This document shows positions 542-39,615 of a stretch of DNA of 40,638 nt, one piece after another. Every line of letters starts with the position of its first letter. The first letter of the stretch is position 1. The DNA comes from a virus (taxonomy: Duplodnaviria; Heunggongvirae; Uroviricota; Caudoviricetes). The stretch is taken from IMG/VR virus record IMGVR_UViG_2778261641_000011. One strand, written 5' to 3'. A model generated the notes under the pieces. It was not told where the DNA came from and did no database searches. It saw nothing but the letters and a program-made list of their open reading frames with translations. The position numbers and the translations under genes were made by a program.

Positions 542-1579
542 TTAACGCTTATCCGCCACCAGTTTGAGCGCGTGTTCCAGCACATTAATGTCTGCACCCG
601 CTTTATGGGCATTTTCACTTAAATAACGCCGCCACTGCCGCGCGCCAGGAATACCCTGGAACAAGCCCAACATATGCCGGGTAATATGGCCGAGATACGT
701 CCCCTGGCTGAGTTCACGCTCAATGTACGGATACATGGCGCGCACTACCGCCACCGGATCGGCATCGGTATCCGAGGAACCAAAGATCTCCCGGTCTACT
801 GCCGCCAGAATACCCGGATTCTGATACGCCTCGCGCCCGACCATCACGCCATCCATATGTTGCAGGTGTGCTTTGGCCTCTTCCAGCGACTTGATACCAC
901 CGTTAATCGACATTGTCAGATGCGGAAAGTCACGCTTCAGTTGATACACACGCGGATAATCGAGCGGCGGGATTTCACGGTTTTCTTTCGGGCTTAACCC
1001 CGAAAGCCAGGCTTTACGTGCGTGGATGATAAACATCTCACACTCGCCTTTGCCGGAAACAGTGTTGATGAAATCGCAGAGAAATTCATAGCTGTCCTGG
1101 TCATCGATGCCAATACGCGTTTTCACCGTCACTGGAATCGACACCACATCGCGCATCGCTTTCACACAGTCGGCAACCAGCTGCGCATTACCCATCAGAC
1201 ACGCACCAAACATGCCGTTCTGCACCCGGTCAGACGGGCAGCCGACATTCAGGTTGATCTCATCATATCCACGCGCTTCTGCCAGCTTCGCACACTGTGC
1301 CAGCGCCGCCGGATCGCTACCGCCGAGTTGCAACGCTACCGGATGTTCTTCTTCACTGTACGCCAGGTAATCACCTTTACCGTGAATAATCGCCCCTGTG
1401 GTCACCATTTCGGTATACAGCAACGTATTGCGGGAAAGCAGACGCAAGAAATAGCGGCAATGTCTGTCCGTCCAGTCGAGCATAGGAGCAATGCTAAACC
1501 GAGAATTCCAGTAAACACCAGTTTTTTCAGGCATCACGCTGGTTTGATTAATTTTTTGTGTTTCATGATTATCGTGCAT
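542..1579 (-). CDS. dusA: tRNA-dihydrouridine synthase A; N-terminal ~32 codons are prophage-supplied
   Basis: 345-aa ORF with TIM-barrel Dus motifs ([13 protein letters not shown], catalytic Cys region). The 5' end (1484-1579) lies inside the prophage-derived att repeat. Alternative start at the downstream MPEKTG Met is possible. Confidence 0.88.
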
Positions 1580-1585
1580 TTTTGA
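1476..1585. repeat. attL: phage-derived copy of the dusA 5' end, with the putative crossover core tcgagcat at 1476-1483
   Basis: Aligns with 39149-39258 at roughly 75-80% identity by eye. An identical 8-bp block (tcgagcat) marks the junction between the host dusA body and phage sequence. Confidence 0.7.
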
Positions 1586-1610
1586 ACATTTCAGGCTATT
1601 TTTCTCGCAT

Positions 1611-1648
1611 TAGGTTCCCGCACAGGTTCCCACGTTTTATGGGAACCC
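1611..1648. promoter_or_regulatory. Clustered GGTTCCC repeats (two direct, one inverted) upstream of int; candidate integrase arm-type binding sites
   Basis: ggttccc at 1613-1619 and 1625-1631, inverted gggaacc at 1641-1647. The same motif recurs beside attR at 39088-39094. Confidence 0.4.
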
Positions 1649-1667
1649 GAAATAACGAGGTCGTGTA

Positions 1668-2765
1668 ATGGCGTACTATAACATAGAGAAACGACTAAAA
1701 TCCGATGGCACACCACGCTATCGCTGTAATGTGATTATCAAAGAAAAAGGTGTTATCACTTACAGGGAAAGCAAAACATTCCCTAAACATGCTCATGCCA
1801 AAACATGGGGCACACAGAAAGTGATGGAATTAGATCTATATGGCATTCCATCATCAAATGCAGTTGACGGACTTACAGTCCGTGACTTACTACACAAATA
1901 TTTAAATGACCCAAATGCCGGAGGTAAAGCAGGCCGTACTAAAAGATATGTGCTGGAACTGCTTATGGATAGTGACATCTCCGCGATCAAACTATCTGAA
2001 CTGACAGAAAATGACGTAATTGAACATTGCAGGCTAAGAAACAACGCTGGCGCAGGTCCAGCAACAGTCAGCCACGATGTTAGTTATCTTGGCAGTGTTC
2101 TGGATGCGGCCAAACCTGTATACGGAATTAATTACACATCAAACCCGGCGAAAAGTGCTCGTCCATATCTACTTAAACTTGGTTTGATTGGTAAATCAAA
2201 CCGTCGTAATCGTAGACCAGCATCTGATGAACTGGACATGCTCATTGAAGGCCTTCAACAACGATCTACTCATAAATGCTCAAAAATTCCGTTCGTTGAT
2301 ATCCTCAAATTTTCTGTGTGGTCCTGTATGCGAATCGGAGAAGTATGCCGGTTACGATGGGAAGATCTCGACCAGGAACAAAAATCTATACTCGTAAGAG
2401 ACAGGAAAGATCCACGCAAAAAGGAAGGCAACCACATGAAAGTAGCCTTGCTTGGGGAAGCCTGGGATATCGTCCAACGACAGCCCAAAAAATCGGAATT
2501 CATTTTTCCATATAACAGCACTTCTATTACTGCGGGATTTCAGAGGGTAAGAAGCAAATTAGGTATTAAGGATCTGCGATACCATGATTTGCGTAGAGAA
2601 GGGGCAAGTCGCTTATTTGAGGCTGGTTTTAGTATTGAGGAAGTAGCCCAGGTTACAGGGCATCGTTCATTAAACGTGCTATGGCAGGTATATACCGAAC
2701 TGTATCCGAAATCTTTACATAATCGTTTTGAAGAGCTCCAAAGGAGCAGAAATAAGACCCCTTGA
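1668..2765 (+). CDS. Tyrosine recombinase / site-specific integrase of the dusA-targeting type
   Basis: 365-aa ORF directly adjacent to attL. C-terminal catalytic region has the HxxR ... Y signature (HDLRREGASRLFEAG...LWQVYTELY). SD acgagg lies upstream of the ATG. Confidence 0.9.
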   Translation: MAYYNIEKRLKSDGTPRYRCNVIIKEKGVITYRESKTFPKHAHAKTWGTQKVMELDLYGIPSSNAVDGLTVRDLLHKYLNDPNAGGKAGRTKRYVLELLMDSDISAIKLSELTENDVIEHCRLRNNAGAGPATVSHDVSYLGSVLDAAKPVYGINYTSNPAKSARPYLLKLGLIGKSNRRNRRPASDELDMLIEGLQQRSTHKCSKIPFVDILKFSVWSCMRIGEVCRLRWEDLDQEQKSILVRDRKDPRKKEGNHMKVALLGEAWDIVQRQPKKSEFIFPYNSTSITAGFQRVRSKLGIKDLRYHDLRREGASRLFEAGFSIEEVAQVTGHRSLNVLWQVYTELYPKSLHNRFEELQRSRNKTP

Positions 2766-2826: not shown

Positions 2827-3075
2827 ATGCGTATTGAAATCTGCATAGCCAAAGAAAAAATGACTAAAATGCCAACCGGTGCTGTGGATGCGTTAAAGGA
2901 AGAATTAACCCGACGCATCAGTAAACGTTATGACGATGTAGAGGTGATCGTAAAAGCCACCAGCAACGATGGCCTTTCTGTTACACGCACCGCAGATAAG
3001 GATTCTGCAAAAACTTTTGTTCAGGAGACTCTGAAAGATACCTGGGAATCTGCTGACGAGTGGTTTGTTCACTAA
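2827..3075 (+). CDS. dinI: DinI-family damage-inducible protein
   Basis: 82-aa product [11 protein letters not shown]...[16 protein letters not shown] closely resembles E. coli DinI (MRIEVTIAK ... QETWESADDWFV). LexA boxes lie upstream. Confidence 0.85.
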
Positions 3076-3218: not shown

Positions 3219-3782
3219 TTATTTCGTTTGAATGCCAGTAACAGGAAATCGTTTATATAGGGTTGATAGCCCAACGTTATAGATACGTGCAACATAACGC
3301 CGTGATTTCCCTGCCGCTATGAGCGCTCCCATCTGTTGCCACTGCTCGTCGCTAAACTTCGGTCTACGCCCACCAATCCGGCCTTTGGATCTGGCAATAG
3401 CCAAACCAGCTAAAGTTCGCTCGCTATTCAAATCAGATTCATACTGCGCAGCAGAAAGAATATTACGGAAATTATAGCGACCACTTGCTGTTTTCAGGTC
3501 TACGCCATCTGTAATACTCCGAAAATTAACACCTTTTTCGTGCAGATTTTGAAACATCAATAGCGCATGCAGCACATTTCTCCCTATCCGATCTAACTTC
3601 CAGACAATCAACTCATCTCCACTTTTCATCACCGTAATTAATTCCTTTAACACAGGGCGATTAGCTGTTCTGCCACTGGCATATTCTTCATAAATTCGCT
3701 CACAGCCAGCTGACTCAAGTGCAAGACGTTGCAACTCTGTATCCTGATGATTTGTTGATACACGAACATACCCGTAAATCAT
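3219..3782 (-). CDS. Serine recombinase, DNA invertase of the Gin/Hin/Pin/Cin family
   Basis: 187 aa, MIYGYVRVSTNHQDTELQR...VWKLDRIGRN...GRIGGRRPK...STLYKRF, near colinear with Hin/Gin. Catalytic Ser in the RVST motif; C-terminal HTH. Confidence 0.9.
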   Translation of the reverse strand: MIYGYVRVSTNHQDTELQRLALESAGCERIYEEYASGRTANRPVLKELITVMKSGDELIVWKLDRIGRNVLHALLMFQNLHEKGVNFRSITDGVDLKTASGRYNFRNILSAAQYESDLNSERTLAGLAIARSKGRIGGRRPKFSDEQWQQMGALIAAGKSRRYVARIYNVGLSTLYKRFPVTGIQTK

Positions 3783-4203
3783 GAGTGCTTCTCCTGTTGT
3801 AAAAACAGGAGAAGAGGCGAAATATCACCTGATTCAGAAAAATATTTCAAAGGTTGGTTTGGGAGAAGCGGCAAAACGGAATGTGGGAACAGGGGAAAAT
3901 CAGATACCAGATATGTCTGCATTTCCATCTGGCAAAAACTGGTTTCAGTTACCAAGTGGTCATATTGTCCAAATGTTTTCGATGAATGTTTATGGGGCGG
4001 ACACTAACGGAACTACAGGTAATTTCCCTATTGCATTTCCTTCAGGCGCACTGGCTGTTAGTGCCTTATGGTCAGATGGCACATTAACGGCTGCTCCGAC
4101 CTTTAAACTTATGGGGTACACGACAACAAGGACATCAGTAACCTTAAAAGTATCAACCGGAAATGGTTTGTATGGAACTATGATTATCGCAATAGGAAGA
4201 TAA
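3781..4203 (+). CDS. Alternative tail-fibre C-terminal variable segment (Sv'-like); silent in this orientation
   Basis: ORF in frame across the crossover site, sharing the GLGE codons with the expressed tail fibre. No independent RBS; only the part from ~3857 would be expressed after inversion. Confidence 0.5.
   Translation: MSASPVVKTGEEAKYHLIQKNISKVGLGEAAKRNVGTGENQIPDMSAFPSGKNWFQLPSGHIVQMFSMNVYGADTNGTTGNFPIAFPSGALAVSALWSDGTLTAAPTFKLMGYTTTRTSVTLKVSTGNGLYGTMIIAIGR
3843..3868. other. hix/gix-like 26-bp inversion crossover site (invertase-proximal)
   Basis: atatttcaaaggTTggtttgggagaa. Its reverse complement begins ttctcccaaaccaa, identical over 14-15 bp to the site at 5704-5718. Confidence 0.6.
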
Positions 4204-5225: not shown

Positions 5226-6007
5226 GCGGCCCTCACAATATAATTAAAGGCGATGTTACGTGGACGATTTTCATTTGCTGTTGGAACAACATTTGCCGCC
5301 GAGAAGTGAACATCTTGTCGGATTTTTCGGTCATTAGCGTATGTCATAGACACATTGATGTTATTCCGGACTGAGGTACCTCCGTAAAAAGCTCCACTCA
5401 CACTTTGAACATCGACAATTGCATTAATTTCGCTGTTTACGCGCAACTGACCAAAACCGCCAGTAATGTTTCGAATAGCATCTCCTTGCGATGAAAGCAG
5501 AGTTCGCCCACTATCCACACCACGTTCATCATCCCAGCCACGAATAAACTCACCGCGTAAATCAGGCAATTTATTTGTCGGGTAAGACTTTGCCAGTTCC
5601 GGGTATTCTTCAGCAGAAAAAGCCGCACCATTGCATTTCAGCCAGCCTGTTGGTGGAGTGGCTGAAGGCCACGGAACAGGCACACCAACGGGTAATGCCG
5701 AACCTTCTCCCAAACCAAGGTTTTCGAGAGCCGTTTTCACCGTGCCATCCGATTTGATATCGCCAAACGGATTCTTGCGGCTTAACAGCAGCGCACGAAG
5801 CGCGGTAAGCAGTTGGTCGTGCCGCGCCTTCTCCAGACTGGCACCGGATGCCTCCACCACGCTGCAGAGTTCTTCCTGCAACATGTCAAAGTAGTCATCA
5901 TCCAGATCGGTGGCAGGCGTGCCTGTCTGGGGGTTACCACGGGTAAAACCGTTCTTACCCGCGCCGAACTTATCCTTCTGCGCGGTTTTCGTGTCTATAC
6001 GATGCAT
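5222..6007 (-). CDS. Tail fibre protein: constant N-terminal part fused to the currently selected variable C-terminus
   Basis: 261 aa with N-terminus [21 protein letters not shown] typical of phage side tail fibres. The crossover site lies in frame at codons ~93-101. Confidence 0.8.
5705..5730. other. hix/gix-like 26-bp inversion crossover site inside the tail fibre gene
   Basis: ttctcccaaaccAAggttttcgagag; compare hixL TTCTTGAAAACCAAGGTTTTTGATAA. Encodes LENLGLGEG in the tail-fibre frame. Confidence 0.65.
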
Positions 6008-26849: not shown

Positions 26850-27632
26850 TTATCTTGTCACCTTTCTCAATTGTATCTCTGCATATGCTTCTTCCTGCCA
26901 GCACTTTGTAACCAGTTTATCAATGACATCTGCATATCCTTTGTACCACTGATAATCCGTCAGGTCTGGTACCAGCTTCTGGACATGATGCCGCGCCAGT
27001 GTGGTTGGTAAACGGCTAAACCGGTTTCCATTGCAACGCCCACAAATCTTATAAACAGGCGTGCCATGAAGCCGGGTCCTTTTTTCATCCAGGACAATAC
27101 CTTTACCCTTACACCCTCTGCACGCTGTGCTGACTTCTCCCTTACCATGACAATGCTGACATAGTTCCTTCACCCACTCTTCCTTGATAACAGATTCCCC
27201 GCTTCTGGAGTGTTTCACCACTTCGCGCAATACATTATGAAATCCAGTACCAGCACAATGCTCACAGCGAGCCTTACTTGCCGCAGACCTGGAATAATCA
27301 GCAAAGGCAAAATTCACAAGGTAAGGGATGATCTGTAACCGGGTTTCTTCACTCAATTTGTTCAATGTCGGGTTATCCAGTGCCATCGCGTAATTGAGCA
27401 GACCTTCAATCGCAAATTGAGGATCCTGAACACCAACTTTTGCCAGGAATAAGGCAAACCCAAGCGGTGCTTTCGACTGCACCATCCCCTGCGCAGCCAT
27501 CACATCCGTAATCGTTAAACCACCTGAGCCTGTCGCCGGTGCGTCATCGCTCAATTTTGGAGATTTTGGGGAGTAATATTTTGGTAAGGCTTCAAGGTTC
27601 ATGCTCGTTCTCCACTTACGCCAATACGCCAA
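26850..27632 (-). CDS. Putative late-gene antiterminator (Q-like), multi-zinc-ribbon
   Basis: 260 aa with four CxxC pairs (CEHCAGTG, CQHCHGKG, CRGCKGKG, CGRC); located immediately upstream of a promoter-plus-terminator unit preceding the lysis genes. Confidence 0.55.
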   Translation of the reverse strand: MAYWRKWRTSMNLEALPKYYSPKSPKLSDDAPATGSGGLTITDVMAAQGMVQSKAPLGFALFLAKVGVQDPQFAIEGLLNYAMALDNPTLNKLSEETRLQIIPYLVNFAFADYSRSAASKARCEHCAGTGFHNVLREVVKHSRSGESVIKEEWVKELCQHCHGKGEVSTACRGCKGKGIVLDEKRTRLHGTPVYKICGRCNGNRFSRLPTTLARHHVQKLVPDLTDYQWYKGYADVIDKLVTKCWQEEAYAEIQLRKVTR

Positions 27633-37732: not shown

Positions 37733-37768
37733 TTTTCCCGGGTGCAGCCGGTTTTGATGGAGAAAATT

Positions 37769-38050
37769 ATGAACACCTTGTTTTTACTGATGGCTGAATT
37801 CAATACCCCAAACATTGAACTCTCAGCAGTTAGCCAAAAGTACTTTGGTATGAGTCCAGCCACGGCAGAAGCAAAAGCAAACGCTTGTAAGTTGCCCGTT
37901 CCAACATATCGCATCGGCACATCACAAAAAGCAAAACGTTGCATCAATATTCAGGATCTTGCGGAATACATAGACAAAAGGCGAGAAGAAGGACGTATCG
38001 AGTGGGAACAGGTCAGAACAGTCAAACAGAAGGACAAAGAACATCACTAA
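37769..38050 (+). CDS. PrtN-like small transcriptional regulator
   Basis: Start at ATG with a GGAG RBS (track ORF from GTG 37742). MNTLFLLMAEFNTPNIELSAVSQKYFGMSPATAEAKANACKLPVPTYRIG resembles PrtN-family proteins. Confidence 0.5.
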   Translation: MNTLFLLMAEFNTPNIELSAVSQKYFGMSPATAEAKANACKLPVPTYRIGTSQKAKRCINIQDLAEYIDKRREEGRIEWEQVRTVKQKDKEHH

Positions 38051-38271: not shown

Positions 38272-38341
38272 AGAAAACTCCCGAGACAGTAAAGGCGTCT
38301 CTAACCCTTTCTTTAAAGCTAGCTTGTTTCGCTAACTTATG

Positions 38342-38362
38342 CCAATCGATCATGTCGATTGG
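38342..38362. promoter_or_regulatory. Perfect 8-bp inverted repeat (ccaatcga-tcatg-tcgattgg) upstream of the small ORF
   Basis: Palindrome in the intergenic region between the GNAT-like gene and the small ORF. Confidence 0.3.
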
Positions 38363-38467
38363 TGACATCGTTTCTTAGTAGTTTAAGCACAAAACGACTG
38401 CCATAGATGTACCTTTAAGGTAATCTGGACGGGTATCCTACAATTTGTAGACCCTTCTCGTCTATAC

Positions 38468-39004
38468 CTACTGAGCAAATTTAAGAAAGATATCCTGCAG
38501 CTCATCAATGACTGCCGACATCACATAACCGCACTGTTCCATGCGGAAACCAAAAGACTCGTAATACTGCACCAGTTCTGGTACTGGCTCTACAATGTGG
38601 ACAACTTTACATTCAACAGCTTTACAAAATATAAAAGCACTCATAAGAGTGAGTAAAACCATGCGCCCTTTCAATGGGTGAGATTCATCTTCTCTAGAAA
38701 ACCTTTCGATCATATGGATACGAAAGATGTTTTCTTCAACCCCATAAACACAAATTGCTGCTCCTGATGGTATTCCCTGAACCCGACCTTGCTGAACAAG
38801 TTTTATGCAGAACTCATACTTTTCTCTGGAGTTGCCATAGGTACTTAACGCATAGTCCCATTCAAGCTCACCATAGCCACCACACAGAATCTTGTAATCA
38901 TCATTACTGAGCGGACCAACAGCAAGAGGTAAGCCGACATGATCAATAATCAACTGGATATTGTTACGTACTGATTGACCTATCTCGTCCAGGGTAAGCA
39001 TCAT
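38468..39004 (-). CDS. Moron near attR: putative GNAT-fold acyltransferase-like protein
   Basis: 178 aa; AT-richer than the phage core; TATAAT-like -10 upstream; GNAT-like segments (QQGRVQGIPSGAA, VLLTLMSAFIFCKAVECKVVHIV). Fold assignment is tentative. Confidence 0.5.
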   Translation of the reverse strand: MMLTLDEIGQSVRNNIQLIIDHVGLPLAVGPLSNDDYKILCGGYGELEWDYALSTYGNSREKYEFCIKLVQQGRVQGIPSGAAICVYGVEENIFRIHMIERFSREDESHPLKGRMVLLTLMSAFIFCKAVECKVVHIVEPVPELVQYYESFGFRMEQCGYVMSAVIDELQDIFLKFAQ

Positions 39005-39085
39005 GGCCTCTCAAGCGGAACACTAAAAGTCGCATTATATCTCATTCTTAAGCCGCGTATGGATTACACCTTGAAATGAAAACGC

Positions 39086-39107
39086 CGGGTTCCCAATAGG
39101 CTCCCAC
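39086..39107. promoter_or_regulatory. GGTTCCC-type repeats next to attR (candidate integrase arm sites)
   Basis: ggttccc at 39088-39094 and ggctcccac at 39099-39107 match the motifs at 1613-1647. Confidence 0.35.
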
Positions 39108-39129
39108 AGAGTGTATAACTACTTGTTTT

Positions 39130-39252
39130 TCAACAACGGTACATCCTATCGAGCATTGGTGCAACGCTAAACCGACCACTCCAGTGAACGTCAGTTTTTT
39201 CAGGCATTGCGCTGGTTTGGTTGATTTTTTGCATTTCAGAATTACCGTGCAT
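39130..39252 (-). pseudogene. dusA: Displaced original 5' end of host dusA (attR), fused to phage sequence
   Basis: Encodes MHGNSEMQKINQTSAMPEKTDVHWSGRFSVAPMLD, about 75% identical to the N-terminus of the intact dusA, then diverges into RMYRC-stop at the crossover core. Confidence 0.7.
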
Positions 39253-39258
39253 TTTCAA
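39149..39258. repeat. attR: host-derived copy of the dusA 5' end
   Basis: Imperfect direct repeat of 1476-1585 sharing the tcgagcat core at 39149-39156. Confidence 0.7.
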
Positions 39259-39550
39259 ATGTAGAGATTATTTTATCGATATATCATTGGGTTATGTTAT
39301 TCAGCATCACTGTTCAGGAGGCTCAATAGCGGGGTACTATACCATAACAACAGGAAGCGCCTGTCTCATTGCAAAAGAAAATTGAGATCAAATCAAGGCA
39401 TGAAGCTCTCACGAAGTGATGGAAATAATCTTATTAGCCGTTAGCCTTGTTAAGGACAATGATAAACAATCCAGGTTCGACGATAAATAAAAAATCACAC
39501 ATTAAACTCCGGTGATATCTCTTCCTGCTAATGGCACTGATAGAAGAAAA

Positions 39551-39576
39551 AAGAACCCAATAAGTATTAGGTTCTT
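39551..39576. terminator. Hairpin terminator downstream of the flanking host ORF
   Basis: aagaacc-caataagtatta-ggttctt flanked by A/T runs. Confidence 0.4.
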
Positions 39577-39615
39577 TTATGTAATGCCTTCCATACCATC
39601 GAAGAACTTCACATA

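Follow-up and report, generated by a model that had tools for sequence, protein, structure and literature searches.

When a prophage lies within a protein-coding gene, is that gene broken or repaired? The question is raised by dusA in the 40,638-nt stretch of viral DNA analysed here (the window), in which a full-length dusA borders one end of a prophage and a second version of its 5′ end lies at the other. We asked which version belongs to the host, to which base the prophage extends, and from where dusA would be transcribed in the lysogen.

Integration into dusA with replacement of its 5′ end is an already known, common and published family trait. Farrugia 2015 (PMC4482086) found the dusA integrase family in more than 200 bacteria, with Escherichia among the best-represented genera. 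In these elements the tyrosine integrase gene is divergent from dusA, insertion takes place in the 5′ end between semi-conserved direct repeats, the element swaps the dusA 5′ end and with it the TIM barrel's first beta strand, and excision occurs as a circle (PMC4482086). Balasubramanian 2019 (PMC6328086) described phage 1720a-02 integrated 100 nt into dusA, with a 7-base core within TCCAGTCGAGCATGGGAGC, the reported attB of C. rodentium; the junctions of 1720a-02 were sequenced, as was the regenerated attP from infected mice. Durand 2021 (PMC8409611) dealt with dusA-specific integrative elements of Vibrio, such as IMEVchUSA3. A lacZ fusion in E. coli showed that a related element gives dusA a new promoter and an N-terminus of identical length, dusA′-lacZ being still expressed after integration at a somewhat lower level; the PrtN-like protein RdfN was identified as the excisionase, without which a dusA element is not excised (PMC8409611). 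In a 2026 paper on DusA, dusA integration and 5′ replacement figure as background knowledge.

Borders of the prophage

The initial annotation had described 1476-1585 and 39149-39258 as diverged copies of the dusA 5′ region that share an 8-bp core, tcgagcat. An ungapped comparison bears out the first point: 90 of 110 positions are identical (82%), and beyond both edges identity drops at once to background (0-6 of 10). The core was likewise found where it had been placed, as 8 identical nucleotides at each end:

1476..1483, no strand: core/overlap copy at attL, TCGAGCAT (from junction comparison and the rebuilt attB and attP)
39149..39156, no strand: core/overlap copy at attR, TCGAGCAT (from junction comparison and the rebuilt attB and attP)

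The longest run common to both copies is not TCGAGCAT but CAGTTTTTTCAGGCAT, of 16 nt, at 1519-1534. The crossover must fall in TCGAGCAT, since nowhere else do the flanks switch from host to phage identity. At both ends TCGAGCAT sits inside CCAGTCGAGCAT(A/T)GG(A/T)GC, in agreement with the attB motif printed in PMC6328086. In attP, inverted TCCTA and TAGGA border the core, and from this the overlap is probably the 7-nt TCGAGCA.

We rebuilt the sites predicted to exist before integration by joining the outer flanks (1101-1483 and 39157-39600) into attB, the empty site, and the inner flanks (38701-39156 and 1484-1900) into attP. All 827 nt of the rebuilt attB are identical (100%) to the uninterrupted dusA of many complete E. 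coli genomes, so 39149-39258 is the native dusA 5′ end, as the initial annotation had supposed. The empty site is contiguous in 3615 of 5426 complete E. coli genomes, and the attL junction seen here is present in 741 of them, about one in seven. An unbroken match to the rebuilt attP (98.3% over 873 nt) was found in the genome record of phage mEp460; the 110-nt dusA look-alike is therefore phage-borne, not a duplication of the target. The predicted joining of 1476-1483 to 39149-39156 thus fits, in silico, both the empty sites and the mEp460 attP. These comparisons fix the borders of the prophage to the base: the insert covers 1484-39156 and is 37,673 bp long, with one core copy counted. In the record of phage Lys8385Vzw (MT225100, about 1560-1580) the core stands twice in tandem, TCGAGCATTCGAGCAT. 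We considered this doubled core as a natural variant and judged it most likely an artefact of circularised prophage coordinates that include both core copies.

In sequence comparisons most of the insert resembles phage SKA5, the head and tail genes match phages of the SfV group, and the early region and integration module match mEp460. By these similarities, the element is a mosaic lambdoid SfV-like myovirus prophage with an SfV/Mu-like contractile tail and an mEp460-type integration module. Near its left end lies a gene for a Din-family DNA invertase (3219-3782, minus strand) with resolvase and HTH_7 domains. Beside it, a segment of about 1.9 kb is bordered by gix/cix-like 20-nt inverted repeats (3849-3868 and 5704-5723, 90% complementary), and is probably an invertible tail-fibre host-range switch.

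Hybrid dusA, integrase and excisionase

With the borders known, the genes around the junctions could be assigned as follows.

542..1579, minus strand: hybrid dusA, 345 aa, with codons 1-32 from the phage and the remainder from the host (ORF list, Pfam, translation)
1484..1585, minus strand: phage-borne dusA 5′ look-alike: 32 codons and the 6 nt ahead of them, within the P′ arm of attP (82% identity with the native copy)
39149..39258, minus strand: displaced native dusA 5′ end with its ATG at 39252 (translation; 100% match to empty-site genomes)
1586..1667, no strand: divergent dusA-int control region, 82 nt (geometry)
1668..2765, plus strand: dusA-specific tyrosine integrase (Int), 365 aa (PF00589, E 1.6e-20)
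37742..38050, plus strand: PrtN/RdfN-type excisionase, or recombination directionality factor (RDF) (PF11112, E 4e-23; phrog_1300, excisionase)

The hybrid DusA has its full length, and Pfam places the Dus domain (PF01207, E 8e-105) at residues 30-340. Its phage-derived part consists of bases 1484-1579, that is, 96 nt or 32 codons, in frame; the earlier statement that the intact gene carries about 32 phage-derived codons is correct in coordinates, sequences and codon count. In mEp460 the look-alike and the P arm form one continuous stretch. Hybrid and native DusA differ at 9 of the 35 N-terminal residues, and reading frame, length and the APMLD strand are preserved by the phage copy. The displaced remnant encodes MHGNSEMQKINQTSAMPEKTDVHWSGRFSVAPMLD and meets a stop five residues on, leaving a 40-codon stub that runs into the prophage. 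The dusA of this lysogen should not be annotated as disrupted.

Int reads away from dusA: its ATG at 1668 (plus strand) and that of dusA at 1579 (minus strand) are divergent and separated by an 88-nt spacer, 1580-1667. Its catalytic residues R222, H306, R310, H332 and Y342 are invariant in 42 homologues, and Int homologues are divergent from an adjoining full-length dusA in 34 of 49 loci of other species. The pattern of a dusA-specific integrase recognized at the outset is therefore upheld by a PF00589 tyrosine recombinase whose relatives adjoin dusA and which belongs to the family of PMC4482086. A structure model of Int comprises a beta3-alpha domain, a low-confidence linker, core-binding helices and a catalytic domain, with residues 1-58 predicted confidently as three strands and a helix. 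Fold matches were Tn1549 Int and full-length lambda Int, the fold of the N-terminal domain itself being not confidently assignable. Pfam and NCBIfam offered no N-terminal domain for Int, and sequence searches of PDB and NCBIfam returned only XerA/XerC/XerD-like matches to the catalytic domain. The homologous gp22 of mEp460 is INT_Rci (cd00796) according to the depositor's note. In the circular phage the excisionase gene lies across attP from int. Past the int stop we noted a TTGACA at 2762-2767 and the LexA-box-like palindromes CTGTTTATCCATACAG (2768-2783) and TACTGTATACAAACACAGTA (2794-2813), followed downstream by a DinI-family gene (2827-3075, PF06183); by sequence, this looks like a prophage-borne dinI under SOS control.

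Fifteen loci with integrase homologues (L023, L025-L027, L029-L032, L034, L040, L047, L048, L050, L053 and L054) have no dusA within 1500 nt upstream and are probably retargeted relatives or tandem arrays. Nine of them were inspected in full and retain paired repeats and the block GTGCAT...TTTTAGGCTATTTT, with the exception of L026, which has ATGCAT and a diverged block. As this block is kept where dusA is missing, it may serve int, as a promoter or another binding site, and not dusA.

The region 1586..1667 must hold the int promoter as well as the replacement promoter of dusA. Transcription of dusA must begin in phage sequence, because only phage DNA lies upstream of it, in which the first gene runs in the opposite direction. 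A consensus scan of 1400-1900 yielded no sigma-70 promoter at the tool's threshold, and none was convincing by eye. The claim that dusA is driven by phage sequence thus rests on this geometry and on the lacZ experiment with a different, related element (PMC8409611), and from these it is supported. A weak candidate is TGTTATAGT, an extended −10-like sequence on the minus strand (1683-1675) that points toward dusA from within int codons 3-6; its YeP3 equivalent is TGCTATAGT. We do not rely on TGTTATAGT as the dusA promoter, since its sequence is already set by the conserved MAYY codons. At the other end of the prophage, a terminator-like hairpin of 13 pairs with a T-rich tail behind it (39549-39578, minus strand) precedes the native dusA promoter region, and a promoter-like site, TTAACA and GATTAT spaced by 17 nt, lies at 39453-39425. 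Hairpin and promoter-like site may mark the native dusA transcription unit, now detached from its gene.

Beside this native end, a variable cargo slot (38282-39087) lies between the excisionase module and the repeats of the P arm. Here it holds a gene for a 178-aa protein (38468-39004, minus strand; phrog_4350) that gave no match in Pfam, NCBIfam or PADLOC. Other genes fill the slot of related phages, a YafO-like toxin pair being one example and a DUF4065 pair another. In all of the E. coli phages checked, cargo genes with an annotation are co-oriented with the displaced native dusA promoter, and no terminator was predicted between that promoter and the cargo genes. Given the shared orientation and the lack of a predicted terminator, the host dusA promoter might drive the cargo after integration.

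Repeats on both arms of attP

The initial annotation had also pointed to GGTTCCC repeats at 1613-1647 and 39088-39107 as likely arm-type integrase sites. Five such candidates and one further site were placed relative to the core in attP.

1613..1619, plus strand: candidate arm-type site P′1, GGTTCCC, at +137 (clustering, comparative)
1625..1631, plus strand: candidate arm-type site P′2, GGTTCCC, at +149, 12 nt after P′1 (clustering, comparative)
1641..1647, minus strand: candidate arm-type site P′3, inverted GGTTCCC, at +165 (clustering, comparative)
39088..39094, plus strand: candidate arm-type site P1, GGTTCCC, at −61, the exact left edge of the conserved module (comparative)
39099..39105, plus strand: candidate arm-type site P2, GGCTCCC, at −50, 11 nt after P1 (comparative)
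39116..39128, minus strand: possible IHF site between P2 and core (−33), the consensus-like AAACAAGTAGTTA with 1 mismatch (weak evidence)

The number of GGTTCCC copies in the window is of no significance (8 against 4.7 expected), and the degenerate 9-mer AGGYTCCCA, with one mismatch allowed, occurs in the window at chance level. As these overall counts are at chance level, only clustering and comparative data carry weight. Only two 7-mers in the window have at least three non-overlapping copies within 40 nt; simulated sequences had 0.12 on average. The sole other triple cluster is ATTTTGG, three times in 31 nt (27554-27584) in a region of replication genes, and these copies may be origin iterons.

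Comparison with relatives gives the repeats a fixed place. SKA5 and Lys8385Vzw have different genes beside attP, and their homology to the window resumes exactly at 39088, so the conserved integration module starts there. A direct pair of repeats (at least 7 of 8 positions matching, spacing 10-12 nt) is present in 41 of 46 related-integrase loci of other species, and in most of the 41 it begins about 55-59 nt ahead of the int ATG; by chance such a pair arises in 10% of shuffles and 15% of control windows. Together with the inverted third copy it occurs in 23 of the 46 loci, the corresponding figures being 0.2% for shuffles and 0 of 315 for control windows; half of the related loci lack the third repeat.

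The motif itself varies by lineage: GGTTCCC, GCACCCC, GTACACC, GGACACC, GTCACCC, GTGCTAC and TTGCTAC were found. Wherever a phage genome gives both arms, the two arms bear the same lineage-specific motif. Yersinia phage YeP3 has GCACCCC at −60, −49, +137, +149 and +165 from the core, so that the layout here (−61, −50, +137, +149, +165) reproduces the YeP3 geometry with a different motif. C5a, AH2, JBD90 and YL2 likewise carry their lineage-specific motif on both arms, phages of Pseudoalteromonas, Burkholderia, Pseudomonas and Ralstonia having each its own. Residues in the predicted N-terminal strands of Int differ between motif classes, a co-variation that is confounded by shared descent. The IHF-like site recurs at the same position (−33) in YeP3 and at −31 in AH2, against a chance expectation of 0.42 per 280 nt (per attP), and was not found in the attP of C5a or JBD90. 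A locus of Xenorhabdus innexi (L053, 1200-1500) has the core TCAAGCAT between a left P arm with AGCACCCC twice and a right P′ arm with GTACACC repeats; from its sequence, this hybrid junction is as expected for two tandem dusA-type elements of different motif classes.

The layout and the concerted change of motif on both arms support the proposal that the GGTTCCC repeats are arm-type sites, to which Int would bind. The term arm-type does not occur in PMC4482086, which mentions neither such sites nor an N-terminal arm-binding domain, and our searches of the open-access literature for arm-type sites of dusA integrases returned nothing relevant. The conserved, co-varying repeat layout of attP is thus a modest addition, not found in the open-access papers searched.

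Mechanism, alternatives and comparison with known systems

The course of events can be read as follows. A lambdoid SfV-like phage inserted by site-specific recombination at dusA codons 33-35, in the APMLD motif with which the Dus domain begins. Int (1668-2765) exchanged strands within TCGAGCAT, probably over the 7-nt overlap. The P′ arm of attP bears a 102-nt imitation of the dusA 5′ end, and through it integration fuses 32 phage codons and their upstream DNA in frame to the host gene, giving a full-length DusA and leaving the native 5′ end and promoter stranded at attR. Int is likely to be heterobivalent in the manner of lambda Int, with the N-terminal beta3-alpha domain binding the five candidate arm sites, and the PrtN/RdfN-type protein (37742-38050) would direct excision. 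In the lysogen, dusA would be transcribed from a promoter in or near the 82-nt int-dusA spacer, where occupancy of P′1-P′3 by Int could affect the expression of both int and dusA. Excision as a circle would regenerate attP and native dusA: the predicted attP is found in mEp460 and the predicted attB in empty-site genomes, and such excision was demonstrated by experiment for 1720a-02. Taken as a whole, the reading that comprises dusA-specific integration, a phage-supplied 5′ replacement, five arm sites, RDF-directed excision and a dusA on a phage promoter is, in our judgement, very probably right.

Three alternatives were weighed against this reading. That the two 110-nt copies are a long target-site duplication of host DNA made upon insertion would account for direct repeats bordering the element. 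However, the copies are only 82% identical, the left one is contiguous with phage DNA in SKA5 as well as in mEp460 (98.3%), and empty sites hold the right-hand version only; we reject this explanation, refuted by the empty-site match and the mEp460 attP, as having next to no chance of being true. An effective knock-out of dusA, in which the hybrid open reading frame stays intact but is silent or inactive in the lysogen, would agree with the lack of a consensus promoter upstream, with the 9 of 35 first residues that are unlike native DusA, and with the drop in expression after integration in the sole measured case (PMC8409611). Yet expression of dusA′-lacZ persisted in E. coli after the related element of that study had integrated, the phage copy keeps frame, length and the APMLD strand, and a full-length dusA is retained beside int in 34 of the 49 loci from diverse species. 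We hold a knock-out to be quite improbable.

The remaining alternative concerns the protein that binds the repeats, which might be another product of the module, either the PrtN/RdfN-type excisionase or a regulator of int and dusA transcription, and not the N-terminal domain of Int. The repeats are located in the int-dusA control region, and PrtN-family proteins bind DNA as activators, with repeated boxes as their targets. Because the module carries RDF and Int together, the concerted motif change cannot separate one from the other as repeat binder, and the lack of a confident fold assignment for the N-terminal domain also leaves room for a different binder. Against it stands the arrangement of the repeats, with the same motif on both arms, conserved distances to the core, and a split of two copies on P and three on P′, as in lambda attP. 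Excisionase sites, in contrast, usually lie on one arm only, next to the core. Int has the extra N-terminal beta3-alpha domain and the low-confidence linker to its core-binding domain, as does lambda Int, and residues in the strands of this domain track the motif class. On balance, a binder other than Int seems unlikely, and we retain Int as the probable ligand of the five sites.

A broader reading joins these elements: dusA-associated integrases would be lambda-like and heterobivalent, the N-terminal domain and the motif having co-diversified, Int would couple int to dusA, and the native promoter would drive the cargo. We offer it tentatively, as it is rather doubtful that all its parts hold together. 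If true, there would be specificity classes (GGTTCCC, GCACCCC, GTACACC, GGACACC and others) on a fixed attP scaffold. With three of the five sites in the 82-nt int-dusA spacer, Int occupancy would link autoregulation of int to how strongly a host enzyme of tRNA modification is expressed. Transcription from the displaced native dusA promoter would enter the slot 38282-39087, whose cargo would be expressed only after integration.

As the family is published, the same module has been studied experimentally and the junction is present in 741 of 5426 genomes, the central finding is both right and already known. As a phenomenon it brings nothing new; its value lies in correct annotation, with borders given to the base and the dusA of the lysogen not called disrupted. 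The repeat layout makes a small addition by giving the dusA family a defined attP whose motifs alter in concert between lineages. Such a layout could 1) aid the automatic delimiting of dusA elements; 2) help explain tandem arrays of different dusA elements; and 3) guide work on whether a prophage recombinase modulates a host tRNA-modification gene.

Among known systems, lambda attP has two P and three P′ arm sites. The prophage here shares with lambda a three-domain Int (by fold match), two P and three P′ repeats, the location of int by the P′ arm, and a possible IHF site between P2 and the core. The N-terminal domain of its Int, however, has no detectable sequence similarity to that of lambda Int. 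The P′ sites of lambda are closer to the core than the 137-171 nt seen here, where the greater distance arises because the dusA look-alike fills the spacer. Also unlike lambda, one P′ site is inverted, the PrtN-type excisionase gene is not adjacent to int, and insertion hits a protein-coding gene, which is repaired. The prophage and ICE SXT, which lies in prfC, differ in integrase lineage, target gene and type of element.

The DAI elements of PMC4482086 show no essential difference from the prophage. Elements of the IMEVchUSA3 type share with it the dusA target and an RdfN gene across attP from int; IMEVchUSA3, however, is a mobilisable island under IncC plasmid activators, whereas the prophage here is a phage, and integrases from Vibrio loci and from Vibrio phages are about 50-55% identical to the Int described here. 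The closest systems are mEp460 (NC_019716), 1720a-02 (KF030445) and SKA5 (OR670062), which have the same integration module at 98-100% identity; in 1720a-02 the part of the module that starts with the core, includes the dusA′ piece and ends 233 nt into int is 99.8% identical over 425 nt. SKA5 also has most of the SfV-like structural region, whereas mEp460 has a lambda-like tail-fibre region in place of the SfV/Mu-like contractile tail and invertible fibre segment found here. The cargo slot beside attR differs from those of SKA5, Lys8385Vzw, PhiR40_1, phiSTEC1575-Stx2k and 1720a-02.
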